From an uncultured bacterium (GTDB taxonomy: Bacteria > Margulisbacteria > WOR-1 > CAVSGV01), in assembly GCA_963699255.1 (NCBI GenBank), contig OY969425.1, positions 1,050,001-1,082,000 of the forward strand: a stretch of 32,000 nucleotides of DNA. The letters are read 5' to 3'. Each line of letters starts with the position of its first letter. Position 1 is the first letter of the stretch. Shown here piece after piece: positions 3,124-25,620 of this stretch. Below the pieces are notes generated by a model. It searched no databases. It saw only the letters and a program-made list of their open reading frames with translations, and was not told the DNA's origin. Position numbers and translations under genes: made by a program.

Positions 3124-3963
3124 TTTTCTCTTTATCAGCATCACCTGGTATGTGAGATACTTCCTGAAAACATCCCTCTGGAGTGGCACAAGATTATTGA
3201 CGATTATCTGCTTTAACGTTTTCCCCTTGACCCTGAATTTGAAGAATAGGTTCAGCATCCAGTAAACTGGCGGAAGATGGACCTGCAAAGTGGTAAGGAT
3301 ACAGCTTAAGACCGGCCTTATGTAATTCAAATACACATCGGTGCCGTAGTCAAGGGTGGGAAGGATGTTATCTGTGATATCCTGTTTTTTCACGACCTTG
3401 AATCCCGCTTTTTCAACTGCTTTGAGATAGTCCGTGAGACCGGCGGAAGGGAGATTTGGTACGTTCTTCGCGCTTACCTTCTTGAAATAATCGGACACGA
3501 GAAGGTATCCTGTAGGCCGCAGCAGCTGTGATATCTTTTTTAACGCTTCCCCGAAAGGTATGTATTGGACCGACTCGCTCATGATTATCAGGTCGAACTT
3601 CTGGCCGGTGTCGTATTTTTCCAGCGTGGTCAGCTTAAAACCGGCTTTGCCTTTTGTGTTCTTCCTGAAAAGCTGCCCCTGGTAAGGATCGGGACATATA
3701 CCCGTTACCTGATATCCAAGGTTTAATAACTTTGCCGCATTGCCGCCCACCCCGCAGCCGACATCGAGGACCGTGCTTACTCCCTTTGGAATGGACGCGA
3801 TCAGATTATTAAGGTATCTTTCCTGAGCGGCCTGGAAATTCTCAAGGGTGAGCTTGTCCCCTTTCTTCCAGAGACCGAAGTGAAGGTAATTTGTCTTTGC
3901 CAGGTCGAGGTAAAGCTTAAGAACCGGCTGAACCCGAACTTTAGTTTTTTCGATTTCTTCCAT
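3121..3963 (-). CDS. Class I SAM-dependent methyltransferase (substrate unknown)
   Basis: Motif I VLDVGCGVGGNA; the N-terminal YLHFGLW element resembles small-molecule/lipid methyltransferases; post-I acidic residue and the LIIMSESVQYI motif. 280-aa ORF with no competing ORF. Confidence 0.85.
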   Translation of the reverse strand: MEEIEKTKVRVQPVLKLYLDLAKTNYLHFGLWKKGDKLTLENFQAAQERYLNNLIASIPKGVSTVLDVGCGVGGNAAKLLNLGYQVTGICPDPYQGQLFRKNTKGKAGFKLTTLEKYDTGQKFDLIIMSESVQYIPFGEALKKISQLLRPTGYLLVSDYFKKVSAKNVPNLPSAGLTDYLKAVEKAGFKVVKKQDITDNILPTLDYGTDVYLNYIRPVLSCILTTLQVHLPPVYWMLNLFFKFRVKGKTLKQIIVNNLVPLQRDVFRKYLTYQVMLIKRK

Positions 3964-4017
3964 AAAAAAATAGCCCTACTCTGTTCGATTCCAGTTAAGA
4001 TATCTCTACCTTAATTT

Positions 4018-4064
4018 GTCATTTGGCATTGGTCATTTGACATTACCCCGACCAAAGGTCGGGG
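4018..4064. repeat. Tandem 13-nt repeat followed by a perfect 8-bp hairpin
   Basis: GTCATTTGGCATT (4018-4030) and GTCATTTGACATT (4032-4044), then CCCCGACC-aaa-GGTCGGGG (4046-4064). No T-run follows on either strand, so it is not a canonical terminator. Confidence 0.6.
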
Positions 4065-4166
4065 TTAATAGCGCAACCTTCTTCAGGTCGAACTGTTAGC
4101 ATTATTCTACCTAATACAATTCACGGGTGCAAGAAGCTGAATTTGCGGCGTTCAGAATGATCTCCC

Positions 4167-4201
4167 GATACTGTGACTTAGCCGGGGAACTTCACAGTAT
4201 C
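4167..4201. repeat. Perfect 10-bp inverted repeat carrying the TCACAGTATC motif
   Basis: GATACTGTGA (4167-4176), a 15-nt spacer, then TCACAGTATC (4192-4201). The same core recurs three times at 5441-5492. Confidence 0.8.
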
Positions 4202-4498
4202 CCTCTATATACGATACGCGTACACAGGCACATACGCACGAGCGCAGGCGCGCGGCCAGACCGGCCAAATTGGGATTTTATTTGTTACTTCGGTACACAA
4301 GGATATTCATTTTAACAGTTGATACATAGATGTTGTTCATTAGCAGTAGAGAAAGACAAAGGATCAATGATGTTAGATATGAATACGAACAAAAGACAGA
4401 AGAACCTGACCCAAAGAGTTTTAGACACGCTGGGAGTTTGAAACTATTGCTGCAAAACCTACTCCTTCAAGACCTCGACTGAGCTTGGTCGGAGTCCT

Positions 4499-4548
4499 CG
4501 GCTTACGGCTTCGCTTTCTCCAGAGGCGAACAGGCGGGACAAGTAAAC
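4499..4548. repeat. Paralogous segment S0 of the non-coding region
   Basis: CGGCTTACGGCTTCG...AGAGGCGAACAGGCGGGACAAGT shares the TTAC-G-TCG, AGAGG-G-ACAGGCG and ACAAGT blocks with S1 and S2. It is the most diverged copy. Confidence 0.5.
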
Positions 4549-4620
4549 TCATCGCCCCGATGCTCCGGTTGATGCAAGCTACCCCCTGTGGTGTGGTAAG
4601 CAAGTTCATTATCCCGATAC

Positions 4621-4695
4621 TTCCGCCAGCCATACAGCTCGTAGAGAGGCGGACAGGCCGATCTCGTCAAAGGTGGGTAGGCAGAACAAGCTACC
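4621..4695. repeat. Paralogous segment S1 of the non-coding region
   Basis: TTCCGCCAGCCATACAGCTCGTAGAGAGGCGGACAGGC... is identical to S2 at 34 of the first 38 positions. It ends ...GGCAGAACAAGCTACC. Confidence 0.75.
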
Positions 4696-4892
4696 GCCTG
4701 CGGCGGGGCAGGCTGGCAGGGAGCTACCGGCTTTGAAAAAGAACAGTGAGCATTTCCCACTACTGAAAACGGGGCAAGGCGATTATCCATGCTATTTCAC
4801 GTTGGCTGAAATGTAACATTTGTTTTGCTTCATTCTCAGACTCAGATTGAGACAGTTACACAATTAACAATGACATCCGCTTTTGCCGAGGC

Positions 4893-4973
4893 TTCCGCCA
4901 GCCTTACAGTTCGTAAAGAGGGGGACAGGCGATGACTCCCGACGTAAAGCCTGCCTGTCGGCAGACAAGTCGG
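4893..4973. repeat. Paralogous segment S2 of the non-coding region
   Basis: TTCCGCCAGCCTTACAGTTCGTAAAGAGGGGGACAGGC... is identical to S1 at 34 of the first 38 positions. It ends ...GGCAGACAAGTCGG. Confidence 0.75.
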
Positions 4974-5430
4974 AATCCCGCACATATTTTACATTTCAAC
5001 AGTAAGGCAGCGGAACAATGAATGGTTATCAGGCCAAAGACAAGCAGGCAAAAAAAGCAGCTTCAGCTGATCGCTTTCTATCAAGACCCGCCTACACCAA
5101 GACTTATACCATCATACCAGCCAGAGGCAATCCCTACAAAGGCAGGCAAGCAGGGAGCAGGTTTCATCGTGTGTTTTCGCTTGGACCATTTGACCTAGTT
5201 TCCCCATGCTTTGCTAAAGATGTCCTTGGTTGTCAGCAATTCATCGCTAACTACAAGAACTGTTGACTTTGTCTTCATTTCAAGCCAGCTGTATCTGCCT
5301 GCGTCGTCTTTTTTGTGTTCGTGCTTGGAGAGGCGCGGAAATGATTTGTTTTGAATGGGATAAGGCTGGGGCCCCACCTGTCCAGACACAAAAAACGAGT
5401 GAAAACTGATGAAATCCCAAGGACAAAAAC

Positions 5431-5494
5431 AAGCGGTTACTTCACAGTATCTAGGGGGGTATTTCACAGTATCAAGCGGTTAGTTCACAGTAAA
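5431..5494 (+). promoter_or_regulatory. Three tandem 21-22-bp operator-like repeats with TTCACAGTA cores
   Basis: AAGCGGTTACTTCACAGTATC (5431-5451), TAGGGGGGTATTTCACAGTATC (5452-5473), AAGCGGTTAGTTCACAGTAAA (5474-5494). Cores lie at 5441, 5463 and 5484, spaced 22 and 21 bp (two helical turns). The array directly abuts the -35 hexamer. Confidence 0.7.
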
Positions 5495-5523
5495 TTGACT
5501 TTTTCACTATTACGGGGCATAAT
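5495..5523 (+). promoter_or_regulatory. Sigma-70-type promoter of the four-gene operon
   Basis: TTGACT (5495-5500), 17-nt spacer, CATAAT (5518-5523). The A of ATG 5530 lies 7 nt after the -10 hexamer, which predicts a leaderless transcript. Confidence 0.6.
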
Positions 5524-5529
5524 TTGATC

Positions 5530-6999
5530 ATGGTACAGGAGCTTGAATATTTAACCTTAAATGAAATAAAAGCTTTTCTTAATGCCATCAACGACACCCG
5601 TGACCGGGCACTAATAATCCTATTCCTTAATACGGGCCTTTTCTTAACCGAGGTAACTTCCCTGAAAGTTGATTCGATCGACTGGAAGAAAAAGATACTT
5701 TCCGTCCCCGGCAACCGGAAAAGGACCATCCCGCTGAACGACCAGGTTTTTGAGGCGTTAGCCAAGTGGTCGAAGGAGCGTCCGGCAGGTAAAATTCCTG
5801 ATCTTTTTGTAACTACAAAAGGCGCGCTGAAAGACCTCACAAGTCGCGGCGTAGATTATCTGATAAGAAAGTACGCAGAACAAGCCGGCATAAAGAAGCG
5901 GGTCAATCCGCAAATACTTCGCAACACATTCGCTGTCCGGCTATTCTCGGAAGAACCCTCCATCGAAAAAGCTTCCGCCATTTTGGGCATATCCGACCCG
6001 GAATCGATAAATCGTTATATACAGGCCTCTAAAAGACCGCCGGCCAAGGTGGAGATAACCGAGAAGCTTGAGCATATCGACACCCGCCACCCCGTCGTTA
6101 AAGCTGTTTCAAAGTTATTCCCTACTAAGCCGAAGATCGTAAAGCCCACGACCGCAATAAAAGGCCCCATAACTCCCAGTCCCGAAGAAGTGATCTTCGG
6201 AAGGGATAATGTGATCGCCGACATAAAAGCTGATATCGCCAAAAGTCAGCCAGTTCTGTTGACTGGCCCGCTTGGAATAGGCAAAACTCATTTATTGATA
6301 CATATGTCAAAGGTCCTCGGTCCCAATACATTATATATATCTGCGCCCAATCCGCTTAAAACCGCTCTGATGCAAATACTCGTAAAACTTGATCCTGAAT
6401 GGCAGAAAAAGCTCAACACCAGAGCTTCAACGAAAGAGATAACCGACTATATTGTGAAAATTAAAGGCGCGAAGCCACCAGTTTTGTTGATCGATAATTT
6501 GAACAATATAAAAATCTCCGATATCGACCCTATTTTGACCTTGCTGAATAACTTTCCCATACTCGCCGCCGCCGATGAAGTAAAACCGAAGCTGAAGCAG
6601 GTCTGGTGGCAGCTTAAACAGGTCCCTCTCCCGCCGTTAAATGAAGATGCCTCGAAAGAACTTATCAAATATCTTACACAGAACCTTACTATTAGCGATT
6701 ATGAAATGCTTGAAACAAGGGTACTGACCCTATCAAACGGCCTTCCTCTTGCCATTGTCGATATGATCCATCAGATAAGCCATATCCCGATGGTTTCAAA
6801 AGATGTTATCCGTGATGTTTATCATGAAGCCGGAATACACTATCGCGACTGGACGACGGTTATAATCTTCATTTACTGGATAGCTGTCATTTTTAGATTT
6901 GTTGCGCTTGGAACAAAAAGCTATGAAGCCTATTTCCTTGCCGGTTTCGGCGTGACGTTATTGATGATTTTAAGAAATGTCATGTCGATGTTGAAGTGA
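5530..6999 (+). CDS. Tyrosine-recombinase-fold domain (degenerate active site) fused to a P-loop NTPase with a C-terminal membrane anchor
   Basis: The N-terminal ~175 aa resembles the XerC/D catalytic domain (RDRALIILFLNTGLFLTEV, ILRNTFAVRLF, LGISDPESINRYI), but with the first Arg as Phe and both His residues replaced. It also has FGRD...LLTGPLGIGKTHLL (Walker A), VLLIDNLN (Walker B-like) and two C-terminal hydrophobic helices. The track start at 5524 is a TTG that directly abuts the -10 hexamer, so ATG 5530 is preferred. Confidence 0.8.
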   Translation: MVQELEYLTLNEIKAFLNAINDTRDRALIILFLNTGLFLTEVTSLKVDSIDWKKKILSVPGNRKRTIPLNDQVFEALAKWSKERPAGKIPDLFVTTKGALKDLTSRGVDYLIRKYAEQAGIKKRVNPQILRNTFAVRLFSEEPSIEKASAILGISDPESINRYIQASKRPPAKVEITEKLEHIDTRHPVVKAVSKLFPTKPKIVKPTTAIKGPITPSPEEVIFGRDNVIADIKADIAKSQPVLLTGPLGIGKTHLLIHMSKVLGPNTLYISAPNPLKTALMQILVKLDPEWQKKLNTRASTKEITDYIVKIKGAKPPVLLIDNLNNIKISDIDPILTLLNNFPILAAADEVKPKLKQVWWQLKQVPLPPLNEDASKELIKYLTQNLTISDYEMLETRVLTLSNGLPLAIVDMIHQISHIPMVSKDVIRDVYHEAGIHYRDWTTVIIFIYWIAVIFRFVALGTKSYEAYFLAGFGVTLLMILRNVMSMLK

Positions 7000-7005
7000 A
7001 TATTT

Positions 7006-8439
7006 ATGTATAGATTTAGAAACATAAAACATTTATTAGATGATGGTGAGCTGGAAAATCAAGAGATATACTTCTCGGATATTTCTGCGCTAAATGATCC
7101 GATTGAAGGCTATAGGGAAATATGCTGGAAAGGAGATAGTATCCTTTGGAAAAACCTTATTAAGCATTATCTTCTATGCCTTGAAAATGTGATAGTGCTT
7201 ACCATGCTTTCAGAAGATCAGGTTAAGTTTAGCCAACAAGACATACCGGTATTTATGAGCACTGAAAAATTGCCAACTGAATTATATAAAAATATGTTCC
7301 AGGAAATATGCAATGAGGTTCTTAATAATGAGGGCATTATAAAGTACACGGAATATCTATCATCTCGCCTAGATGGCGTCAACCATGACGAATTGTTTAT
7401 TCACCTTAAAATGATACATATGATAGCCTGCGAGGCTATTATTAAAATACATGCGGCGCATAGTTTGCAACTTGCCTCAAACAAACCATCCACAAATCAT
7501 TCCGACAGTCTTACTAAATTGTTAACAGCTTTAGAGGAATTACAATCTGGCAAAGAAGAACACATTAATAGCTTGACGCTATTCTCTATGATGAAGCAAT
7601 TCATGAGAGATAATGACATTCTCAGTTCACGCAAATCAATGGGCAAAGGGGATAACAACAAACAATGCTTCATTAAATTTGAATTTCCAGCTGCTTATAT
7701 AGAACAGATTGAATCATTAACTTATCCCAATCTATATGTGGCATGCTTTACGGAGGATTGCACAAATCCTGTTACTTGGAGTCATTATGGGGATAGCCAC
7801 AAGGGCGTTGCCCTTCAATTCAAGCCTCAGCTTATCGAAAATGAACCATGTATTAATCTTTATGGGATCACGGGTGTTTGGGGAAACGGGAAAAATAGCT
7901 ACAGTAAACGTAAATACCCTTTTAAAAAGGTGACATATTCAAATGAATTCCCCAAAATTAATTTTTTTACTTCTCTCGGACAATTAACTGTTCCGCAAGC
8001 CTTGTCTCAATGGTATACAGATGTTGACGGCAAACAGAGCACCTATGCAAGTGACATATTTAATAAGCAAGACGAATGGCGACATGAATATTGGGCGAAA
8101 TTTGAAAAAAGCGTTTTAACTAAACTTAATGACTGGGAGAAAGAAGTGGAGTTTAGATTGATATTGCCCGAAATACTTGGTCTTCATACTGATATAAACG
8201 CTCGGAAATTTAAATACGATTTTAATGACTTAGGTGGCATTGTTTTTGGCATTAAAACACCATTAGAAACTAAATCGAGAATAATAGATATTATCGAGGA
8301 AAAATGCAAAAAAATTGATCGTAAAGACTTTGAATATTATCAAGCTCAGTATGATGAATCAGCTGGTAAAATCAATATTATTAGGATGAGCATAAACCAA
8401 ACGAGGTCGAATAAAGACAATGTTAGCACCAACACATAG
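7006..8439 (+). CDS. DUF2971-family protein
   Basis: The N-terminus MYRFRNIKHLL...EIYFSDISALNDPIEGY matches the DUF2971 signature as I recall it (YkYr...l.fs....fNDPfE). 477 aa, AT-rich, and 6 nt downstream of the preceding stop codon. Confidence 0.7.
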   Translation: MYRFRNIKHLLDDGELENQEIYFSDISALNDPIEGYREICWKGDSILWKNLIKHYLLCLENVIVLTMLSEDQVKFSQQDIPVFMSTEKLPTELYKNMFQEICNEVLNNEGIIKYTEYLSSRLDGVNHDELFIHLKMIHMIACEAIIKIHAAHSLQLASNKPSTNHSDSLTKLLTALEELQSGKEEHINSLTLFSMMKQFMRDNDILSSRKSMGKGDNNKQCFIKFEFPAAYIEQIESLTYPNLYVACFTEDCTNPVTWSHYGDSHKGVALQFKPQLIENEPCINLYGITGVWGNGKNSYSKRKYPFKKVTYSNEFPKINFFTSLGQLTVPQALSQWYTDVDGKQSTYASDIFNKQDEWRHEYWAKFEKSVLTKLNDWEKEVEFRLILPEILGLHTDINARKFKYDFNDLGGIVFGIKTPLETKSRIIDIIEEKCKKIDRKDFEYYQAQYDESAGKINIIRMSINQTRSNKDNVSTNT

Positions 8440-9805
8440 CGTCTTTGGCATCTTTTTAACGCTGATATTCCTGGCAGTGTTCGGGATACAATGGGGTCTT
8501 CATTGGACGATAATTCTGTTCGCGATCATCGGAGCAATAACGCCCGACATCGACCACCCCCGCTCCGTCATAGGCAAGCTTTTTCCGTATATCTCCATTC
8601 CCCTTGAGCGCAAATATGGCCATCGAACGATAACCCATTCATTCATCGGCTGGGCTATCTTCACCGCAATTTTCGCTTTAATTGTCTTGTTTGTAGCTTT
8701 GATCTTTGGATTCATTTTTAAGTTTGACGCTTGGATTTGGGAATTAGCGCCAAGATGGACAGCCGCGTTCTCCATCTCCTACTTTTCCCACCTGGTGCTT
8801 GATATGTTTAACCGCCGCGGCAGCCAGATGTTCTGGCCGGACCCCAGCAGAGATGTTATCCCAAAAAACCCGAAGTTCAGGCCTGAATCGGGATCAAGCG
8901 GGGAGCTTTTGATCTTCTTTATTCTCTTCGTGCTGATGCTCTTTGCTTTTCCGATTTCCAAATACGGGATAGCAAGCTCGCTCCGCTGGCTAATGGCTAC
9001 TCCCGGATCAGCCATCAAGGAGTTTCAGTCCCTCAAGACCCATTCCTATGTTGAATTTAAGGGTTACTTCACGGAAACAAATGAGCCGGTCGAAGGGATA
9101 GGCGAAATTCTCGATGTCCAAAGTTCTCGACTGGTAATATTATATAAACCTGGCCTGAGTGAAGCCGTGATGGTAAAAGGAGTCGAAGGAGGGCTTGCCC
9201 GCCGAAGCCTTAGCGAAGGCGGGAAGATTTACACTTTAAGCGATGAGCTGGCTGCCGATATATCCGCTTCACATGTCCGGCTGAAAAGAACAAATACCCC
9301 TATAAAAGTCACAAAGAAGGAATTCGAAAATGAGAGCCGTGATGCTCTGCTTGCGCAGATACCCGCTGGCGCGCTTGTTTCGGGAACGGTTAAGCTCCCG
9401 GAAGGAATGGGCCTTCAGTTCCCTGCCTACGCCGGCTCTTATAAACCCTTGAGCCAGAAAAGTGGCGATCTTATTCTCTCTTACGCCTCAAAAGACCAGA
9501 TTGCAAAGCTTGCCCTGACAGAAACTTTTAATCTGCAAAAAAGGAAGGACAAGGCCGACCTCGCACAGCTATACGCTCAAGCGGATAAGCTTAAAAGCCA
9601 GATAGCAGAAGCGGAAACCGGCAACGGTCTTACACCTTTAGGCAAAGAGCTTATGATGAACAAAGATGAGATCAAAAAGCAAAAAGCCCAGCTCGCCGAT
9701 TTGAACGGCCAGCTTGAGGAAATAAATGTTAAAATAGAGGAACTTCAGCTGAAGATAAAGGCCAGAAAGTTCGCATTCTCAGGAGAAGTCTATTTAAGAC
9801 AATAA
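8420..9805 (+). CDS. DUF457/YdjM-like membrane-bound metal-dependent hydrolase fold with a C-terminal soluble coiled-coil extension
   Basis: MLAPTHSVFG..., ITPDIDHPRS and HRTITHSF are the YdjM-type His/Asp motifs, set among 5-6 hydrophobic helices. The C-terminal ~260 aa is soluble and ends in a heptad-rich segment (ADLAQLYAQADKLKSQIAEAE...LEEINVKIEELQLKIKARK). It overlaps the upstream gene by 20 nt. Confidence 0.75.
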   Translation: MLAPTHSVFGIFLTLIFLAVFGIQWGLHWTIILFAIIGAITPDIDHPRSVIGKLFPYISIPLERKYGHRTITHSFIGWAIFTAIFALIVLFVALIFGFIFKFDAWIWELAPRWTAAFSISYFSHLVLDMFNRRGSQMFWPDPSRDVIPKNPKFRPESGSSGELLIFFILFVLMLFAFPISKYGIASSLRWLMATPGSAIKEFQSLKTHSYVEFKGYFTETNEPVEGIGEILDVQSSRLVILYKPGLSEAVMVKGVEGGLARRSLSEGGKIYTLSDELAADISASHVRLKRTNTPIKVTKKEFENESRDALLAQIPAGALVSGTVKLPEGMGLQFPAYAGSYKPLSQKSGDLILSYASKDQIAKLALTETFNLQKRKDKADLAQLYAQADKLKSQIAEAETGNGLTPLGKELMMNKDEIKKQKAQLADLNGQLEEINVKIEELQLKIKARKFAFSGEVYLRQ

Positions 9806-9816
9806 GGAGGCTTGAT

Positions 9817-10347
9817 ATGAAGAAATTTGTTGTCTATCTTATTATTGCGAGTTTATTGTCTCCGCTGATTGCTTCTCTTGCTTATGCTTATGAATACACT
9901 CTCGCCACGAATGATCTCCTTGAAGTCAAAATCCTTAATCAGAAGGATATGGACACAAAACAGACTATTACGCCTGATGGCACTATTGCGCTCCCATTCC
10001 TCGGAAGGGTCCAGGCTCAGGGCAAAACGCTCAATGAATTTCAGACCTATTTGACGGCCGAATTCGCCAAGTATGTGGATAAGCCTCAGCTTGTTGTCTA
10101 TCTAACCCCAAGATCGATATATGTAGTTCAGCACGATCTCAAGAAAAATACCTGGGAAGTCAAGGAAGCTAAGTCCATTCCCGAAGCTAAAGCATTCGCT
10201 GGCGAGGATTATACTAAAGAGATCAAATATGGCGATGTTATAACCGTTGATGTCGGACTTCAACCTGACTGGTGGGAAAATAACTGGTATAAAGTGCTCA
10301 CTGGAACAGCTGTTGCAGTTGGAATATACGAAACGCTGAAAAAGTAA
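9817..10347 (+). CDS. Secreted Wza-like protein (Poly_export domain plus possible SLBB)
   Basis: AAGGAGG Shine-Dalgarno 6 nt upstream. Signal peptide MKKFVVYLIIASLLSPLIASLAYA. The Poly_export pattern is YTLATNDLLEVKI...ITPDGTIALPFLGRVQAQGKTLNEFQTYLTAEFAKYVDKPQLVVYL. Confidence 0.8.
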   Translation: MKKFVVYLIIASLLSPLIASLAYAYEYTLATNDLLEVKILNQKDMDTKQTITPDGTIALPFLGRVQAQGKTLNEFQTYLTAEFAKYVDKPQLVVYLTPRSIYVVQHDLKKNTWEVKEAKSIPEAKAFAGEDYTKEIKYGDVITVDVGLQPDWWENNWYKVLTGTAVAVGIYETLKK

Positions 10348-10463
10348 AAGGCGAACTTCTTACCTGACATAAGAAAATCTCTCGGATGATTTCTGGACTA
10401 TCCGGATTGTGGAATAGATGTCTATCTCCAGTAGCTTCGAGTCCAGCACAAAGCCAAATATCC

Positions 10464-10492
10464 TTGACTTTCCTTTACCCTTCGTGTAAAGT
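10464..10492 (+). promoter_or_regulatory. Putative sigma-70 promoter of the higB-HTH-immA-beta operon
   Basis: TTGACT (10464-10469), 17-nt spacer, TAAAGT (10487-10492), 12 nt before ATG 10505. Confidence 0.45.
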
Positions 10493-10504
10493 GTTTTGGA
10501 TGAT

Positions 10505-10837
10505 ATGGACATTAACTTTAAAACATCAAAACTTGAGAAAACCTTTAACTCTTCAAAGAAGCTTAGTATTGAATATGGGCAGAATGCCGAGGTAATTATG
10601 AACAGAATGAAGCTTTTCCAAGAGGTCGTATGCCTGAACGATGTGCCTGTTACAAAGCCACCAAGGAGACATTCTCTCAAAGGAGACAGGGAAAATCAGT
10701 TCGCAGTTGATTTAAGACAAGGCTTTAGGATTACCTTTTGCGCTAACCATGACCCGCTCCCACTTAAAGAGGATGGTGGGATTGATTTAATGAAAGTAAC
10801 GGCAATTACTATTTTAAGTGTGGTGAATTACCATTGA
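10505..10837 (+). CDS. higB: HigB-like toxin (plasmid maintenance system killer, RelE/ParE superfamily)
   Basis: MDINFKTSKLEKTFNS...KLFQEV...LKGDRENQFAVDLRQGFRITF resembles the HigB-like toxin family. It sits immediately upstream of a HigA-type HTH. The track start at 10496 is a TTG; ATG 10505 is preferred. Confidence 0.7.
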   Translation: MDINFKTSKLEKTFNSSKKLSIEYGQNAEVIMNRMKLFQEVVCLNDVPVTKPPRRHSLKGDRENQFAVDLRQGFRITFCANHDPLPLKEDGGIDLMKVTAITILSVVNYH

Positions 10838-10839
10838 AT

Positions 10840-11070
10840 ATGACTAACAATAAAAATACATATAATCCGGACTATGCAGTACATCCTGGAGTAATAATCG
10901 AGGAAACACTCTCTGTATTGGGGATGAAAAAGAGCGATCTAGCTATACGCACTGAGCTTTCATTAAAGACAATAAGCCAAATAATAAATGGTAAAGAGTT
11001 TATTACACCAGAAACAGCAGTAAAGCTTGAAAGAGTATTAGGAATGCAAGCGTATATTTGGAGGAACTAG
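10840..11070 (+). CDS. higA: HigA/VapI-type XRE helix-turn-helix antitoxin-like protein (possibly the N-terminal part of a split HTH-peptidase)
   Basis: HPGVIIEETLSVLGMKKSDLAIRTELSLKTISQIINGKEFITPETAVKLERVLGM is a typical HigA HTH. The ORF stops (TAG 11068-11070) in the middle of the helix that normally continues as FWLNLQxxYDL. Confidence 0.7.
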   Translation: MTNNKNTYNPDYAVHPGVIIEETLSVLGMKKSDLAIRTELSLKTISQIINGKEFITPETAVKLERVLGMQAYIWRN

Positions 11071-11930
11071 ATAGTTCATATCGTATATTTATTGCGAAAC
11101 AAAAAGATCAAGAGAAATATGCCGCGGCACAACGATGGATTAAAAGATTCCCCATAAAAGAACTGATTGAGAGGGGCTATCTAAAGGGTTCAGATAATAT
11201 TAATGAACTTACCGAACAGCTTTTAACTTTCTTTTCGGCTGGATCGTTAAATTCATTTAAAAGTCAAATAACTAATGTTGCTTTCCGCAAATCAGCAGCT
11301 TACCAGAGTAAGCCTGAAAGTGTTATGACTTGGCTTAGAATAGGCCAAGTTGAAGCGCAAAACACTGAAGCGCCATTGTTTAACAGGGACATGTTTACTT
11401 CTAATCTAAAAGAAATTAAGAGATTAACAACATGTAAATCAATTAAAGAAATGCTATTAAGAACGAGGGAATTATGCCTGAAGAGTGGCGTTGTTGTCTT
11501 ATATATTGAAGAAATTGAGCAAACTAGAGCAAGTGGTGCGGCATTTTGGTTAACCAAAGATAAACCGGTCATCATGCTTAGCTCTCGATATAAAACCGAT
11601 GATCATTTCTGGTTTAGTTTTTTCCATGAATGTGGACACCTGCTCAATGATAGCAAGAAAACAACATTTATAGATTATGATGATAATGAAGAAGATGCGA
11701 ACATCTTTGCAGGCAATTTCTTGATTCCACAAAAAGATTATGATGAGTATTTCGGGCAATTTAGAAATGCCGATTTAAACGCAATTATCGTTAATACTTT
11801 TGCTAAGAAAATTGGAATCGCTCCTGGAATTGTTGTCGGTAGGCTTCAAAAAGACAAAAAAATCGATTATGCCAAACAATATTCAAATCTACAAAAGAAA
11901 ATTGACTTTAAAGAAATTAATCGAACATGA
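11058..11930 (+). CDS. ImmA/IrrE-family (COG2856, peptidase M78) zinc metallopeptidase
   Basis: HExxH motif in FFHECGHLLND, and the linker RWIKRFPIKELIERGYL typical of HTH-ImmA fusion proteins. It starts at a TTG overlapping the HTH ORF in another frame. Its stop overlaps the next ATG as ATGA. Confidence 0.8.
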   Translation: MEELDSSYRIFIAKQKDQEKYAAAQRWIKRFPIKELIERGYLKGSDNINELTEQLLTFFSAGSLNSFKSQITNVAFRKSAAYQSKPESVMTWLRIGQVEAQNTEAPLFNRDMFTSNLKEIKRLTTCKSIKEMLLRTRELCLKSGVVVLYIEEIEQTRASGAAFWLTKDKPVIMLSSRYKTDDHFWFSFFHECGHLLNDSKKTTFIDYDDNEEDANIFAGNFLIPQKDYDEYFGQFRNADLNAIIVNTFAKKIGIAPGIVVGRLQKDKKIDYAKQYSNLQKKIDFKEINRT

Positions 11931-13168
11931 ACACTTTTTACGTGCCAATATTAAAAGCAAAAGAGGGAGAATTGTCTGCATTGAATGAGCTCTCCGGGAA
12001 TGTGGCGAAAAAAGTATTTCCTTTATTAGAAATCGTGCCGGATACTCGTTTACTTTCTATTAATGAAAAAATCAAAATAAACGATTCCATAACTAAGCTA
12101 ACCAAGAAAAGTCCTCATAAATTTACATATAAAGACAAAAAAGGAACCCTTCATGTCAAAGGGAGAATGACAGAAAAAGAGTTAGCATATTTGAGAGATA
12201 TTTCAAAGGAATTGAACGATGAGGTATATGCCGCAGCTGTCAACCAACTATACACAAGATCAAACCCAACCATTCAGGATTATCTTAAAGGGGTTTTTAC
12301 TAAGATGGTTGCTTTCAAGCTTACAGGAAGGACTTTATATATTGACTTTCATCATCTCGAAGAAAACAAGCATAGGGTGAATTTATTGGAATTAATATTA
12401 CAAGAGATAAGCATGAATAACATCAAAGCCATTCTTGTCTTTAGCGTTGAGGAGTTAAATAAATATAGTAAAACAATTATTGAGAGCGGAATAAAATCTC
12501 TGGCGATTAGAATTAATGGAAATGAAATCGATTCGCTTAAGGAGATTAAGGCCCAGCTCAAAACAAATCTGGATATTCCAATAAATCAGGTTGACTTAAT
12601 TATTGATCACAAAAGCCTTCAAGGAGGCGACAATCAATTATACGTTAGAGAATATGAAAGAATTACGGAAAAGGATGTATGGGGAAGATTGATATTTGCT
12701 GGGGCATCATTTCCTGTGGATCTGATGGGATATCCCCCCTACAGTGAACATGACATCCCAAGAATTGAATGGCAACAATGGAAATATTTGGCAGAAAAAC
12801 ATGATAATAAAAATATAACTTATTCGGATTACACTATAAGGAGTTCGCAATTACCTCTTGCAAAATTTGGAATTAGTCCAAGTGCAAACATTCGATATAC
12901 TCACGACGATATTTGGTTTTTAGTCCGAGGCAAATCTATAAAACACGACCCAAAGGGGAACAAGCAATATTATGATATATCAAATACAATTTTAGTTGAT
13001 GCTAAATATGCCGGTGAAAATCATTGTGAGGGGGATAAACTTATTAATATGTGCGCAAATAAAAAGTGTGGCCCTGGAAATCAGACTACTTGGATAACCG
13101 CTGGTATAACACATCATATTACGACGGTTGTTGAGCAGCTCTCCAGTTTTCTCGGGACTTTAAAGTAG
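11927..13168 (+). CDS. Beta-protein family protein (T4 beta protein / sce7725-like)
   Basis: The N-terminus MNTFYVPILKAKEGELSALNEL matches the family hallmark as I recall it (YvPiLK.K.GE..AL). C-terminal Cys/His-rich tail ...NHCEGDKLINMCANKKCGPGNQTTWITAGITHHI. ATGA coupling to immA. The family assignment is from memory. Confidence 0.6.
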   Translation: MNTFYVPILKAKEGELSALNELSGNVAKKVFPLLEIVPDTRLLSINEKIKINDSITKLTKKSPHKFTYKDKKGTLHVKGRMTEKELAYLRDISKELNDEVYAAAVNQLYTRSNPTIQDYLKGVFTKMVAFKLTGRTLYIDFHHLEENKHRVNLLELILQEISMNNIKAILVFSVEELNKYSKTIIESGIKSLAIRINGNEIDSLKEIKAQLKTNLDIPINQVDLIIDHKSLQGGDNQLYVREYERITEKDVWGRLIFAGASFPVDLMGYPPYSEHDIPRIEWQQWKYLAEKHDNKNITYSDYTIRSSQLPLAKFGISPSANIRYTHDDIWFLVRGKSIKHDPKGNKQYYDISNTILVDAKYAGENHCEGDKLINMCANKKCGPGNQTTWITAGITHHITTVVEQLSSFLGTLK

Positions 13169-13853: not shown

Positions 13854-16800
13854 TCATTTTCCAAGAAAATCAATCTCATCGATCTCTTTCATAATTTTAT
13901 CCGTTTCTGTCAGAGCAACAACAATCTTCTGATAATGCTCAATGTCTTCATTAGATAGCTTGCGCCCTTTTCGGTCCTTGAGCCATTTTTGCGCAGGCTG
14001 GTAGCCGCCAATATAGAAGTTCCACGCAATTTCCGGTACTTTACCAAAGTATTGTGTCGCATTTATAAATACCTTGCTGTCTTTATAGGTTAGCTTATCA
14101 ACAGTATCCGACCCCTCAACAGGGAAGGTTGTAATATATTTTTCTACTTTAGGTGATTCGAGCAGATGCAATCCACGCAATTCTGCGCCGAGCTTTACCA
14201 GCCCATTGAATGTCTTTGCGTCTTTCGGATAAGGCACTCGTGGAAAATCAATCTTTAAGAATTCCTTATACTTTTCGCGGTAACTTGGTGAATGTAAAAC
14301 CGCGTATATATAATCAAAAATATCTTCGGGGTTACTCTTCTTGACGATCCGTTCTATTGCATCGACAATAACCTTGCTAGTATTTGCTACTCGTCTCGCA
14401 TCATCAGCACAAAGATATAGCGGAAACACTGTATCAATACTTACACTGTCTGAACGTATATATCCATTAACTAAAGGCCCGTTTGCAATAAAATAATATG
14501 AAGAAGGCATATTAGCAGGAGAACGATTTACTGTTACCAAACCGATATTCCTCACAATTAAATGTCGCATAACTTCTTTCCTCATTCGCTCAATAAAATC
14601 TTTATGATAATATACAAAGCGAGTGTCAAATGGTCTATAACATATTGAGACAGTGTTGTTACTATTAAAGTCATGCTTCAGAGCCTCTGCGATCTTCCAT
14701 CCCGCATTCTCCTTTAATGAGTATTTTGACTTTGCCTCTTGTGGCGATTGGCAACAAAGAAAATTCTTAACTCTTTTTTCCAGTGTCTCTCTGTCAAAAT
14801 CAACAATAAAATCATCGCGCGAAGTTACAACCCCAACACTTGACACAGGAAATAATTCGGCAACAGAGAATCCTTTTCCATACTGCTCCCTGATTGCCTC
14901 ATTACGGGCTATCCATTCATAATTCGGCTCAATCGGGCATACAGTTTTCCATCCCACAGAATCAATTGAATGTGAGTCTAAATACTTAAACTTATCTGAA
15001 CGTGAGCCATAACAGTCAGCATGAAATATTTTTGCTTGATTATTCTTGCTATTCTTCTTTTTTAACCCAACAAATATAGAAACTCCAGTTTTAATATCAA
15101 AAACATTCTTATCGTCAGCCCCTTTAGGTGTTTTCTCTTGTTTATTTGCGTTGCCATGAAGATCAAGCACATATATCTCATCAAATGTTTTCATAAGACG
15201 GAATCGCATACCGCGAAAAGTAGGATTGTCAATGTAGCCGTGCGCTGTGATCATTGCCACTATGCCTTCTCCGGTTTTTTCGATCATACTTTCAGCATAC
15301 CTAATAAATTTTACATAATCATCATTCAGCCATTTTGAATTTCGCTCCTGCAATCTTCCACCTGTCGGTTCAACCTTATATACATCATTACCTGTATACG
15401 AAGCGTTACTTGATTCGCCTGAATAAGGTGGATTACCAATTACCACCATTATTGGTGTCTCATTTTTGATTTTGCTTGCTTCTTTTGCTTCTTCAGCAAT
15501 GCTTTCGGCCAAACCAAAAGAAAGCATGTCCTGTTGCACCTCGGTTTGTTCAAGAGAATTTGTCAAATAAATGCCTAATCTATTGTTAAATATCTTAAAC
15601 CCTGTCTTTTTGAATGCCATGCTTAATTTGAGATGCGCGATAGTATATGGCGTCATCATAATTTCGAACCCATGAAGACGCGGTAAAAGGTCATTGTGAA
15701 CATATGTTGTCCATCTTCCCTTTTGCCCCTGTTCGATCAATCTTTTATAGATTGTGTCAATAGTCGCGCTTATAAATGTGCCGGTTCCAACCGCTGGATC
15801 CAGGATTTGAACACGATGTTTTCCATTTGACAGCTTTGAAGAATCAGCAAGACCATTTGGAAGGCCAAACTCTTTTTGCAGAATGTAGTCTACCGAACGT
15901 ACAATAAAGTTTACTACCGGCAGCGGGGTATAATACGCCCCCATTTTCTTGCGAAGCTCTGGGTCATATTCTTTAAGAAAATCTTCATAAAAATGAATAA
16001 CGGGGTCCGGGCTCGCATGTTCTTGGCCGCCAATATCAATTTTGAAGTATTGACTCATCAGCTGTTGAACGTTCGCATGCAGAAAGACGATACAAAGTTC
16101 ATCAACAATATATTTTAAACGATCATCGTAGTCAGCTCCGGCAATATGATCAAAAAAGTGACGAAGGAAAGGGTTGGATGCCGGAACCAGATCCCTGGCT
16201 TCCTGACGGGAGAATGTATCCGGAGTTTCATCGTTATAACGAGCGACAAATAGCCCATAAACAAGTGTTTGCGCGTACATATCCGCAAAAGTATCTACGG
16301 TCAGGTCATGCACAAGTAATTTTTTTATTGTTTCATATACCCGCAATAGTCCCGCATTTTTCTTTGAATCTCTATCCGAAGAGAGATAGTGCCTAATATT
16401 ATCCCTTATTCTTTGCGCCTTTCCCCCCATGATCTTTGCAAGGTGCTCTCCTGATTTGATCGGCTCTTTTTGAGATTGCGTAAAGTCAACAAGGGTTTTC
16501 GCGACTTGTTCATAATTCTCCGGTAAAGGAGAGATAGTGCGGTTCTCTTTGTCAAAGCTTGCTATTTTGATCGGCTCTTCATAAGAAACCCCATTCCTGT
16601 AAAACCTAAATTCCAAATAATCCGTCAGCACCAAATTCGTATAGCCATAATACCTTGCCATTTGTTCGGATTTCTCAACCTTATCAAGCGAGATCCCAAT
16701 ATCTTTTGTTTCAATATAGAGGATAGGAACACTATTATTGATCACGACAAAATCCGGCTTATTCCCTTCTGCAGCCCTTTCATCGTGACCGATGCGTTGA

Positions 16801-16940
16801 ACCTTTATCGACTCGAATATGCCATTTAACAATATTTCAAAGTCGGTACGGTACCCCATCTCGCTTGTTTCTTTGTGGGCAAATTTAGAAGCGACAGACT
16901 TTAGATATTTGGAAACTAAATCATTTTTATTTTCTGCCAT
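13854..16940 (-). CDS. Single-chain type IIG-like restriction-modification enzyme (PD-ExK endonuclease + gamma-class N6-adenine methyltransferase + C-terminal target-recognition region)
   Basis: N-terminal NKPDFVVINNSVPILYIETKD (D...ExK), SAM motif I ILDPAVGTGTF, catalytic motif IV VVIGNPPYSG, and a ~450-aa C-terminal region with FPLY as in type ISP/IIG specificity domains. No helicase domain is present. Confidence 0.8.
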   Translation of the reverse strand: MAENKNDLVSKYLKSVASKFAHKETSEMGYRTDFEILLNGIFESIKVQRIGHDERAAEGNKPDFVVINNSVPILYIETKDIGISLDKVEKSEQMARYYGYTNLVLTDYLEFRFYRNGVSYEEPIKIASFDKENRTISPLPENYEQVAKTLVDFTQSQKEPIKSGEHLAKIMGGKAQRIRDNIRHYLSSDRDSKKNAGLLRVYETIKKLLVHDLTVDTFADMYAQTLVYGLFVARYNDETPDTFSRQEARDLVPASNPFLRHFFDHIAGADYDDRLKYIVDELCIVFLHANVQQLMSQYFKIDIGGQEHASPDPVIHFYEDFLKEYDPELRKKMGAYYTPLPVVNFIVRSVDYILQKEFGLPNGLADSSKLSNGKHRVQILDPAVGTGTFISATIDTIYKRLIEQGQKGRWTTYVHNDLLPRLHGFEIMMTPYTIAHLKLSMAFKKTGFKIFNNRLGIYLTNSLEQTEVQQDMLSFGLAESIAEEAKEASKIKNETPIMVVIGNPPYSGESSNASYTGNDVYKVEPTGGRLQERNSKWLNDDYVKFIRYAESMIEKTGEGIVAMITAHGYIDNPTFRGMRFRLMKTFDEIYVLDLHGNANKQEKTPKGADDKNVFDIKTGVSIFVGLKKKNSKNNQAKIFHADCYGSRSDKFKYLDSHSIDSVGWKTVCPIEPNYEWIARNEAIREQYGKGFSVAELFPVSSVGVVTSRDDFIVDFDRETLEKRVKNFLCCQSPQEAKSKYSLKENAGWKIAEALKHDFNSNNTVSICYRPFDTRFVYYHKDFIERMRKEVMRHLIVRNIGLVTVNRSPANMPSSYYFIANGPLVNGYIRSDSVSIDTVFPLYLCADDARRVANTSKVIVDAIERIVKKSNPEDIFDYIYAVLHSPSYREKYKEFLKIDFPRVPYPKDAKTFNGLVKLGAELRGLHLLESPKVEKYITTFPVEGSDTVDKLTYKDSKVFINATQYFGKVPEIAWNFYIGGYQPAQKWLKDRKGRKLSNEDIEHYQKIVVALTETDKIMKEIDEIDFLGK

Positions 16941-24828: not shown

Positions 24829-25620
24829 ATGAAAAATGCCGCAAAAGAAATCACCATACTCTTTATTGCATTTTTTACGATCGGAAGCGTCAAAATAACT
24901 GCATTTCAGAATCCCACCATAAATTATAATGACAAATATATTGAATCTGTGAACATTACTAATAATGTAATTACAAAGAAAAGAAAAAATGTTAATGACA
25001 TTGCGCCAACAATAACAATCAGATTTAAAAACCCACCTTCCTCTGTTATTGGATATATATTAGATTCATACGGCAATGCAATTGATCGATTATATGAAAC
25101 ACATTCTGAAATACCGAACAAAAAAGAATACATACTCAGAGCTCAATTCGATGATAATTATGTTTATAATGGATCGTATTATGTGCGAATGTTTATTAAG
25201 TGGGATGATGAAAACGGGAATGAAATACACAGCGAACAACTTAAATGCGACTATAAAATTAATATCCCTGAGAACACCATTAAAAATGGATTTTATATGA
25301 GGTCTCCAAATTCGAAGTTGTTTAATTTCGGTAATTTCAGCATTGACTCCAATCTATCTGACAAAAAAGATCCAATAATCGCCTGGGTAGATACAATAAA
25401 CAAGAACGTGAAAAAGTATCAATTATTTCTTGAGTCCAGCAGTACTTCAAATATGCCATACATTGACAATATAAACGCTCAGAAAAGAGAGATCATCATG
25501 AAAAATTATTTTATGAATAAAGCTCTTGGAGGTGGATGGATAAGAGCGGTTTTCAAGGATGGGAGTTACAAAGATACAGAAGGGATATCAAGGGTCAATT
25601 ATTTATATGATGGCATGTAA
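24829..25620 (+). CDS. Secreted or membrane-anchored protein of unknown function
   Basis: AAGGAG Shine-Dalgarno. N-terminal hydrophobic segment ITILFIAFFTIGSV. 263 aa with no motif that I recognise. Confidence 0.6.
   Translation: MKNAAKEITILFIAFFTIGSVKITAFQNPTINYNDKYIESVNITNNVITKKRKNVNDIAPTITIRFKNPPSSVIGYILDSYGNAIDRLYETHSEIPNKKEYILRAQFDDNYVYNGSYYVRMFIKWDDENGNEIHSEQLKCDYKINIPENTIKNGFYMRSPNSKLFNFGNFSIDSNLSDKKDPIIAWVDTINKNVKKYQLFLESSSTSNMPYIDNINAQKREIIMKNYFMNKALGGGWIRAVFKDGSYKDTEGISRVNYLYDGM

Follow-up and report, generated by a model that had tools for sequence, protein, structure and literature searches.

Among vertebrates, the Crypton-derived DUF3504 proteins are domesticated, catalytically inactive derivatives of tyrosine recombinases and presumably bind DNA. 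In bacteria, recombinase folds retained after the loss of their chemistry are, to our knowledge, rare and mostly anecdotal. Here we describe a protein of Margulisbacteria, a poorly known sister group of Cyanobacteria, in which a degenerate tyrosine-recombinase domain is fused to an NTPase resembling the signal transduction ATPases with numerous domains (STAND) and to a transmembrane (TM) hairpin. Its gene lies in a 32,000-nucleotide stretch of the genome of an uncultured WOR-1 bacterium (CAVSGV01; GenBank assembly GCA_963699255.1, contig OY969425.1, positions 1,050,001 to 1,082,000), the whole of which is referred to as the window. Positions are those of the window unless given as genome positions. 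The gene and the parts of its product are:

5530..6999, + strand: gene for the degenerate tyrosine recombinase with STAND-like NTPase and TM hairpin (489 amino acids; AlphaFold2 mean predicted local distance difference test, pLDDT, 82.9)
5548..6033, + strand: tyrosine-recombinase catalytic-domain fold, residues 7-168 (Pfam, XerA/XerD alignments, Foldseek, hhalign, Ka/Ks)
6196..6819, + strand: P-loop NTPase, residues 223-430 (column conservation, Pfam, Foldseek)
6847..6993, + strand: two-helix membrane hairpin, residues 440-488 (hydropathy, conservation, alignment to the hairpin of catalytically intact relatives)

The open reading frame (ORF) starts with the ATG at 5530, with a TTG at 5524, and stops at 6999. 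An earlier note, made from the letters alone, had claimed a tyrosine-recombinase fold short of three of its six catalytic residues, coupled to a STAND/AAA-like NTPase and two hydrophobic C-terminal helices, and every peptide string that it quoted is found in the translation (NTGLFLTEV at residues 34-42, GNRKR at 61-65, PQILRNTFAVRLF at 127-139, LGISDPESINRYI at 152-164, FGRD at 223-226, LLTGPLGIGKTHLL at 243-256 and VLLIDNLN at 318-325). The fold is borne out by Pfam, by alignments to XerA and XerD and by Foldseek on the predicted structure. Phage_integrase (PF00589) covers residues 7-168 with an E-value of 5.5e-23 (82 bits against a cut-off of 27.1), and the match spans profile positions 2-170 of 172. 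The core-binding (SAM-like) domain has no counterpart: the catalytic domain begins at residue 7, and XerA and XerD align from their residue ~105-130 onward. For the N-terminal domain of the AlphaFold2 model, which was made from 69 sequences, the best Foldseek match is XerA 5hxy (rmsd ~3.2 Å over ~180 columns). All NCBIfam scores fall under the equivalog cut-offs, with XerA best (107.7 against 220, E 7e-31), then XerC (73.7 against 335) and XerD (70.2 against 330).

Catalytic positions were assigned by HMMER alignment to solved structures of XerA (4a8e, 5hxy) and XerD (1a0p, 5dcf), after the XerD numbering had been confirmed on its sequence (R148, K172, H244, R247, H270, Y279). F38 falls at Arg-I, Q128 at His-II, R131 at Arg-II, I154 at His-III and Y163 at the nucleophile, and the catalytic K172 of XerD lies opposite a gap or a Pro. 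Profile-profile comparison with hhalign against the catalytically intact relatives described below (probability 100%, E 3.9e-53, 473 columns) shows the beta2-beta3 hairpin shortened by 6 residues, with its conserved Lys gone. By these alignments the catalytic set R-K-H-R-H/W-Y is reduced by four of its six residues, Arg-II and the Tyr being kept. The earlier note was right about Phe, Gln and Ile at Arg-I, His-II and His-III and about the retained Arg-II and Tyr position; its count of three lost residues becomes four with the Lys.

The same pattern holds family-wide. A search of 5.8 billion proteins returned 175 homologues, nearly all 480-545 amino acids long with both domains; their named sources are Margulisiibacteriota, WOR-1 or Saganbacteria, and their database labels are the generic "tyrosine-type recombinase/integrase" or a mistaken "EcfA2". 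In a multiple alignment of 120 homologues the substitutions are conserved, with Phe at Arg-I in 102 of 120, Gln at His-II in 88 of 120 and Ile at His-III in 107 of 120; R131 is present in all 120 and the nucleophile Tyr in 116. R63, R65 and R162 are nearly invariant, and the integrase-like domain has many invariant residues by column conservation. The same genome holds a second copy of the gene, 90% identical, and between the two paralogues (Ks ~0.66-0.86) the ratio of nonsynonymous to synonymous substitution rates (Ka/Ks) is 0.076 for the recombinase-like domain, 0.079 for the NTPase and 0.008 for the TM hairpin. This low ratio argues that the degenerate domain is under strong purifying selection.

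Two simpler accounts of the gene were rejected. A chimeric assembly does not agree with more than 170 full-length homologues that stand on independent contigs, nor with two copies in a single-contig genome. A housekeeping Xer recombinase does not agree with the patchy distribution and the island location, and the genome carries a further four PF00589 genes of the ordinary kind in addition to the pair of fusion genes.

The closest proteins outside this family have kept their catalytic residues. When 1.84 billion representatives were searched with a hidden Markov model (HMM), 185 clusters passed E <= 1e-30, and the catalytic residues were checked in 83 near-full-length matches of 440-640 amino acids. 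All checked clusters over ~260 bits are degenerate; a lower tier (140-260 bits) comprises 57 clusters of the same length and architecture in which R, H, R, H and Y are kept and the Lys of the beta2-beta3 hairpin is nearly invariant too. Genome matches of the intact group are nearly all Bacteroidota and include cultured strains (Olivibacter sitiensis DSM 17696, Riemerella columbina DSM 16469, Dyadobacter sp. 32 and several Flavobacterium). Stand-alone NTPase-TM proteins of ~300 amino acids also exist. A maximum-likelihood tree gathers 36 of 38 degenerate sequences into a single split against the intact ones, on a long branch with an approximate likelihood ratio test (SH-aLRT) value of 100%; the other two are a pair nested among intact sequences. 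The tree is unrooted; polarity was inferred from the fact that the superfamily conserves the catalytic set universally, and on that polarity the Margulisbacteria clade is a degenerate offshoot of intact R-K-H-R-H-Y recombinase-STAND-TM proteins. The earlier note could place the architecture in no described family; this stands in that no catalogue or literature match was found, and is qualified by the intact versions in Bacteroidota.

The proposed STAND/AAA-like NTPase is supported by Pfam P-loop models, by Foldseek and by a Bacteroidota orthologue that matches NB-ARC (32.7 against a cut-off of 23.5) and ATPase_2. An invariant FGR is followed by a Walker A motif GxxGxGKT, a Walker B motif hhhhD-N and a helical region. 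AAA_22 scores 30.5 bits against a cut-off of 27 on residues 240-340; AAA_22, AAA_5 and AAA are just over their Pfam cut-offs on ~240-345, and the AAA_16, ATPase_2 and nSTAND models are under theirs. In Walker A, G246, G249 and G251 are invariant or nearly so, and K252 and T253 are each present in 63 of 69 homologues. D322 of Walker B is invariant and is followed by Asn in 57 of 69, so that the catalytic Glu is missing; intact relatives often have DD, DS or DN here. Foldseek matches of the C-terminal part of the model are NRC/NLR resistosomes, RFC and RuvBL (STAND/AAA+ folds). The two hydrophobic helices (residues 440-463 and 469-488 by hydropathy) prove to be a conserved TM hairpin with invariant R456, F457, G461, E466 and Y468. 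It follows directly on the helical region, and a C-terminal ligand-sensing repeat domain has no counterpart.

Sites that the integrase-like head might recognise lie upstream of the gene:

5441..5494, + strand: three direct TTCACAGTA(T) cores, a candidate operator array that abuts the -35 hexamer (sequence)
5495..5523, + strand: sigma-70-like promoter TTGACT-17-CATAAT (consensus match only)
4167..4201, no strand: perfect palindrome GATACTGTGA-N15-TCACAGTATC with 10-bp arms (sequence and palindrome scan)
4069..5360, no strand: left copy of the 1,292-bp inverted repeat IR1 (100% identical inverted match when the window is compared with its own genome by blastn)

The three cores begin at 5441, 5463 and 5484, a spacing of 21-22 bp. 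The adjoining promoter is the best consensus match in a scan of 5200-10600 (10 of 12 positions), and its -10 hexamer is followed after only 7 nt by the ATG, so that the transcript may be leaderless. The 10-mer of the promoter array also makes up the arms of the palindrome, which lies ~100 bp in from the outer end of IR1 and is present in all four inverted-repeat copies of the two islands of this genome. Genome-wide, TTCACAGTAT has 9 matches in 1.77 Mb against ~3.4 expected, and 7 of the 9 are in the two islands. The array is also kept in front of the paralogue and of the orthologue in genome G082. At homologous loci of other genera the phased 21-22-bp arrays are made of a related, TTCgCAnnATC-type motif (TTCCGCAnnATC three times in G142; TTCGCCAGATC / TTCGCATAATC in G129), as would be expected of protein and site evolving in pairs. 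The motif arrays lend support to what the earlier note had proposed, that the head would recognise DNA and would no longer recombine it. Known RNA was rejected as an account of the 1.5-kb ORF-free stretch upstream: Rfam (gathering and E-value thresholds) and a tRNA scan of the window and of 3900-5600 returned no structured RNA.

The gene sits just inside one end of a mobile island. An insertion of ~44.8 kb is shown by an empty site in three genomes of the same family (G083, G082, G085), where the methyltransferase gene abuts the gene that stands at genome 1098794 here. The right copy of IR1 is at genome 1093516-1094807, which would be window 43516-44807 and so lies outside the window; the two copies bracket ~38 kb. 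That the copies do not differ at all points to continuing gene conversion or to a recent origin by duplication. The right copy is immediately followed by another inverted repeat, IR2 (161 bp, 98%; genome 1094804-1096733), and between the arms of IR2 lies a gene for a 480-amino-acid large serine recombinase (LSR). The internal junction of reverse-complemented IR1 with IR2 is exactly the sequence expected of the junction of a circular form (attP); next to attL and attR the element thus seems to have an attP-like sequence as well, intact and inverted, and in the circular form a ~1.45-kb inverted repeat would flank the LSR gene. The LSR ORF ends inside a convergent tRNA-Glu(TTC) gene (genome 1096727-1096801). 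The gap of the empty site in G083 also holds a tRNA-Glu (L035 1038-1111), and the tRNA with an upstream 19-mer is inverted in this genome relative to it. An overlap of the LSR 3' end with a tRNA is found in four elements: tRNA-Glu(TTC) here, tRNA-Gln in the second island of this genome, and tRNA-Glu(CTC) in G145 and L013. The LSR of the small L013/G145 element has the Resolvase, Recombinase and Zn-ribbon domains (PF00239, PF07508, PF13408), and the island LSR is 71% identical to it. Just outside the left boundary, at 4009-4068, there is a short dispersed repeat (ccttaatttgtcatttggcattggtcatttgacatt...) that recurs at genome 1041707, at 1101060 and at other places, and in the genomes of relatives. 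A third LSR gene, 59% identical to that of the island, stands ~10 kb to the right of it (genome 1106312-1107778), and in G082 the matching position is likewise occupied by an LSR gene, but the trio of genes described below is missing there.

This arrangement recurs. The paralogous island has a 914-bp IR1, a 197-bp IR2, an LSR gene and tRNA-Gln, so that an LSR stands at the end of both islands in this genome, and IR1-type repeats occupy the same positions in G129 (586 bp) and G088 (394 bp), both with an LSR. The gene order inverted repeat, recombinase-NTPase, YdjM, Wza-like protein of the outer-membrane polysaccharide export (OPX) family, cargo, DprA-like, inverted repeat, LSR is found again in G129, G132 and G088. 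In G069 and G029 the LSR gene is directly upstream of the recombinase-NTPase gene (in G029 the order is DprA-like, LSR, recombinase-NTPase), which is a circular permutation of the arrangement in this island. The recurrent core genes are those for the DprA-like protein, a ~174-amino-acid protein, the LSR, the recombinase-NTPase, the long YdjM protein and the OPX protein. The DprA/Smf-like gene (179 amino acids) and the ~174-amino-acid gene lie at the LSR-proximal end of the cargo (genome 1091986-1093269), also in G129, G132, G088 and G029. Across the phylum the recombinase-NTPase gene is sometimes fragmented or placed at a contig end. A close LSR is present in 20 of the 29 genomes that have this gene, against 31 of 117 without it, counts in which relatives are not independent. 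Of the 9 cases in which trio and LSR are on one contig, 8 have both in the same orientation; the LSR of G064 points the other way from its trio. By these comparisons the islands are a previously undescribed tRNA-linked integrative family in Margulisbacteria, presumably driven by the LSR.

Downstream of the recombinase-NTPase gene lie the other two members of the trio, a variable gene between them and the first, and further cargo:

7006..8439, + strand: DUF2971 / PDC-S31-like gene, variable cargo between genes 1 and 2 (Pfam DUF2971; PADLOC PDC-S31 E 1e-21)
8420..9805, + strand: long YdjM-family membrane protein, 461 amino acids (Pfam YdjM E 4e-28)
9817..10347, + strand: short Wza/OPX-like exported protein, 176 amino acids (Pfam Poly_export PF02563 E 5.8e-20)
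11058-13168 and 13854-16940: defence cargo, namely M78/ImmA-like peptidase and Beta-protein genes, and a Type ISP enzyme

The paralogous locus has the same genes without DUF2971 and with a 94-amino-acid ORF in its place. The same trio accompanies homologues of 55% and 42% identity in unrelated chromosomal contexts (L015, L017) and occurs in G129, G132, G088, G069 and G064. A long YdjM gene also comes after the intact gene of Bacteroidota, in almost all loci whose downstream sequence extends far enough, often with a variable insert of 0.4-2.4 kb between them. The spot between the recombinase-NTPase and YdjM genes looks like an insertion hotspot inside an operon, occupied in Bacteroidota by, for example, a D12 methyltransferase gene. 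A gene of ~710 amino acids is directly upstream of the intact gene in all four Bacteroidota loci with ORFs listed, and in L052 it has primase and VapE-helicase domains. The Wza-like third gene was not seen in the Bacteroidota loci examined. Sequence matches of the Wza/OPX-like protein in the PDB are Wza and 185-amino-acid polysaccharide export proteins. In the AlphaFold2 model of the long YdjM protein (pLDDT 74), five TM helices at the N-terminus precede a beta-rich domain and an antiparallel alpha-hairpin, and by the positive-inside rule the C-terminal 280 residues of the protein are probably periplasmic; a PDB sequence search gave no match, and Foldseek with the model gave none of significance (Wzc, MacA and AcrA at E 0.06-0.5). 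In PADLOC-DB 2.0 the first gene has P-loop-level matches only (mad8, E 2.5e-5 over 40 residues), and the long YdjM and OPX genes match nothing meaningful. No named system for the trio was found in PADLOC, PHROGs or NCBIfam, and neither the recombinase-STAND-TM architecture nor its pairing with YdjM was found described in the literature searched.

The cargo of the island comprises PD-Lambda-2-like B and C genes, a Type ISP restriction-modification enzyme, a histidine kinase with a response regulator and a giant surface protein. The M78/ImmA-like peptidase and Beta-protein genes correspond to PADLOC PD-Lambda-2 B and C (E 3e-33 and 2e-44), and the restriction-modification enzyme, of 1,027 amino acids, is encoded on the opposite strand. 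The surface protein (>2,147 amino acids; 25559-31999 and beyond) carries an M23 peptidase, many FlgD-Ig, Big and NHL repeats, and CHU_C (type IX secretion) signals.

The reading that we prefer, tentatively and at somewhat less than an even chance, is that a catalytically dead recombinase has been kept as a site-specific DNA-binding head and, joined to an ATP switch and tethered to the inner membrane through the helical hairpin, regulates or organises the island there. The head would bind TTCACAGTAT-type sites. At the palindrome ~100 bp within each island-end inverted repeat, next to the LSR crossover points, it would act as a dimer, and its binding to the three phased repeats at its own promoter would be cooperative and would repress, and so autoregulate, its operon. 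The dimer is proposed by likeness to recombinases on their core sites. ATP-dependent oligomerisation would loop or pair the sites and, with the long YdjM protein and the Wza-like protein as partners, keep the island ends at the membrane; the LSR would perform the actual strand exchange. The interaction with YdjM and any effect on LSR recombination are predicted parts of this scheme. In its favour stand the degenerate catalytic site kept across the clade, the purifying selection on the head, the distribution of the candidate sites, the recurrent place of the gene in the LSR islands and, for the ATP switch, an intact Walker A with a Walker B that has no catalytic Glu. Several observations weigh against it. 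The small G145/L013 element has neither inverted repeats nor YdjM and OPX genes, and 9 of the 29 gene-bearing genomes are without a close LSR, many of these being fragmented assemblies. When a palindrome matching the operator was searched for in the inverted repeats of G129 and G088, it was degraded and not clearly conserved, so the link between palindrome and operator rests on this genome and its close orthologue. We know of no LSR that needs a membrane-bound accessory ATPase, and the STAND NTPase and the defence-rich surroundings point equally well to a role in immunity.

Such a role, which we consider unlikely though well worth weighing, would make the protein the sensor or switch subunit of an unrecognised anti-phage or anti-plasmid system: the STAND part would oligomerise on foreign DNA or on a recombination intermediate sensed by the integrase-like head, and the oligomer would activate the long YdjM protein as effector (a predicted metal-dependent hydrolase), with the Wza-like protein. 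The STAND-like fold with its NLR resistosome matches and the NB-ARC match of the Bacteroidota orthologue fit this account, as does the patchy presence of the gene across the phylum (29 of 146 genomes, often multicopy, sometimes pseudogenised). Defence genes surround it (PDC-S31, PD-Lambda-2 B and C, the Type ISP enzyme), and in Riemerella an SNase nuclease follows the pair. PADLOC models, however, match the trio no further than P-loop noise, the protein has no C-terminal repeat sensor, and self-encoded arrays of cognate sites at its own promoter and in the island repeats, together with a position and orientation of the gene that stay fixed with respect to LSR and island ends whereas defence cargo varies, argue against it. 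The presence of a genuine Wza/OPX homologue raises a further account, an improbable one, in which the trio is a minimal Wza/Wzc-like trans-envelope conduit (a DNA-binding ATPase, an inner-membrane adaptor-like protein and a periplasmic OPX protein) that moves island DNA or another polymer. The beta domain and antiparallel alpha-hairpin of the YdjM model, its Foldseek resemblance to Wzc, MacA and AcrA, its predicted periplasmic C-terminal domain and the DprA-like gene of the island core agree with this. Those Foldseek matches are not significant, however; the OPX gene is missing from the Bacteroidota loci examined and from G145/L013; relaxase, pilus and coupling-protein genes were none of them seen; and a recombinase head that is truly dead cannot nick DNA. 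Equally speculative, and to be thought improbable, is a combination of head, ATP switch, long YdjM protein and Wza-like protein into a new mobile-island membrane machine that would recognise its own ends and gate LSR integration and excision or pass DNA to a trans-envelope conduit. If this were true, a recombinase would have been exapted as the cis-site recognition subunit of a DNA-handling envelope complex.

The repeats themselves admit two other explanations. Three direct repeats at helical spacing beside the gene, with an inverted copy elsewhere, could be iterons, and the protein a membrane-attached, ORC/DnaA-style origin-binding ATPase acting as initiator of the excised circular island. 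The FGR and P-loop motifs resemble AAA_16 and Cdc6-like families, and the intact Bacteroidota relatives come directly after a primase-VapE helicase gene; but the repeats overlap the promoter in the manner of an operator, neither an AT-rich unwinding element nor a helicase gene turned up close to the array of this island, and the Margulisbacteria islands have no primase beside the gene. We think an initiator quite improbable. We hold a still-active recombinase with a non-canonical site to be a slim prospect at best. R63, R65 and R162 would then stand in for the lost Arg and Lys, and the enzyme would invert or resolve DNA at the inverted-repeat palindromes. The near-invariance of these residues, the retention of Y163 (116 of 120) and R131 (120 of 120) and a perfect palindrome with recombinase-core-like inverted arms in each repeat speak for it, but four catalytic positions are hydrophobic, neutral or deleted, the 15-bp spacer is about twice the usual core spacers of lox, dif and FRT, the islands have a dedicated LSR, and the common orientation of trio and LSR in 8 of 9 same-contig cases argues against free flipping.

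The selected clade as a whole and its intact sisters would be a natural experiment in the passage from a DNA enzyme to a DNA-binding module. The islands would add a new integrative family with a core of LSR, recombinase-NTPase, long YdjM, OPX and DprA-like genes, which ferries defence systems. YdjM is a widespread family without an assigned role, and its pairing with the recombinase-NTPase in two phyla makes that role testable.

Compared with XerA, XerC and XerD, the protein shares the catalytic-domain fold, Arg-II and the Tyr position, but it is without a core-binding domain and without Arg-I, Lys, His-II and His-III, and it is fused to an NTPase and a hairpin. The intact Bacteroidota recombinase-STAND-TM proteins are homologous over the full length, TM hairpin included, and share the YdjM pairing; they differ in keeping R-K-H-R-H-Y and in being placed after a primase-VapE gene instead of at the end of an LSR island. 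With STAND NTPases (NB-ARC, Avs and PF01637-type) the protein has in common a P-loop with a preceding GR motif, the Walker B Asp, a helical region and an NLR-like predicted structure; in place of the C-terminal repeat sensor it has a TM hairpin, its Walker B is D-N, and its matches to nSTAND and Avs models are marginal. Likeness to Wza/Wzc (OPX and polysaccharide co-polymerase, PCP) lies in a genuine Wza-family partner, a membrane-anchored P-loop protein and an inner-membrane protein with a helical hairpin. Here, however, the NTPase is not a bacterial tyrosine kinase (BY-kinase) and the cytoplasmic head has the fold of a DNA enzyme; no PCP or BY-kinase HMM matches, the long YdjM protein meets Wzc in Foldseek at E 0.06, and the islands contain no glycosyltransferase or polymerase genes. 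The Crypton-derived DUF3504 proteins are alike in concept, but they belong to an unrelated, eukaryotic lineage and have neither NTPase nor membrane anchor. We rate the Margulisbacteria protein as a domesticated recombinase fold set on a STAND switch within a new island family, an architecture unmatched in the families, defence catalogues and literature searched.

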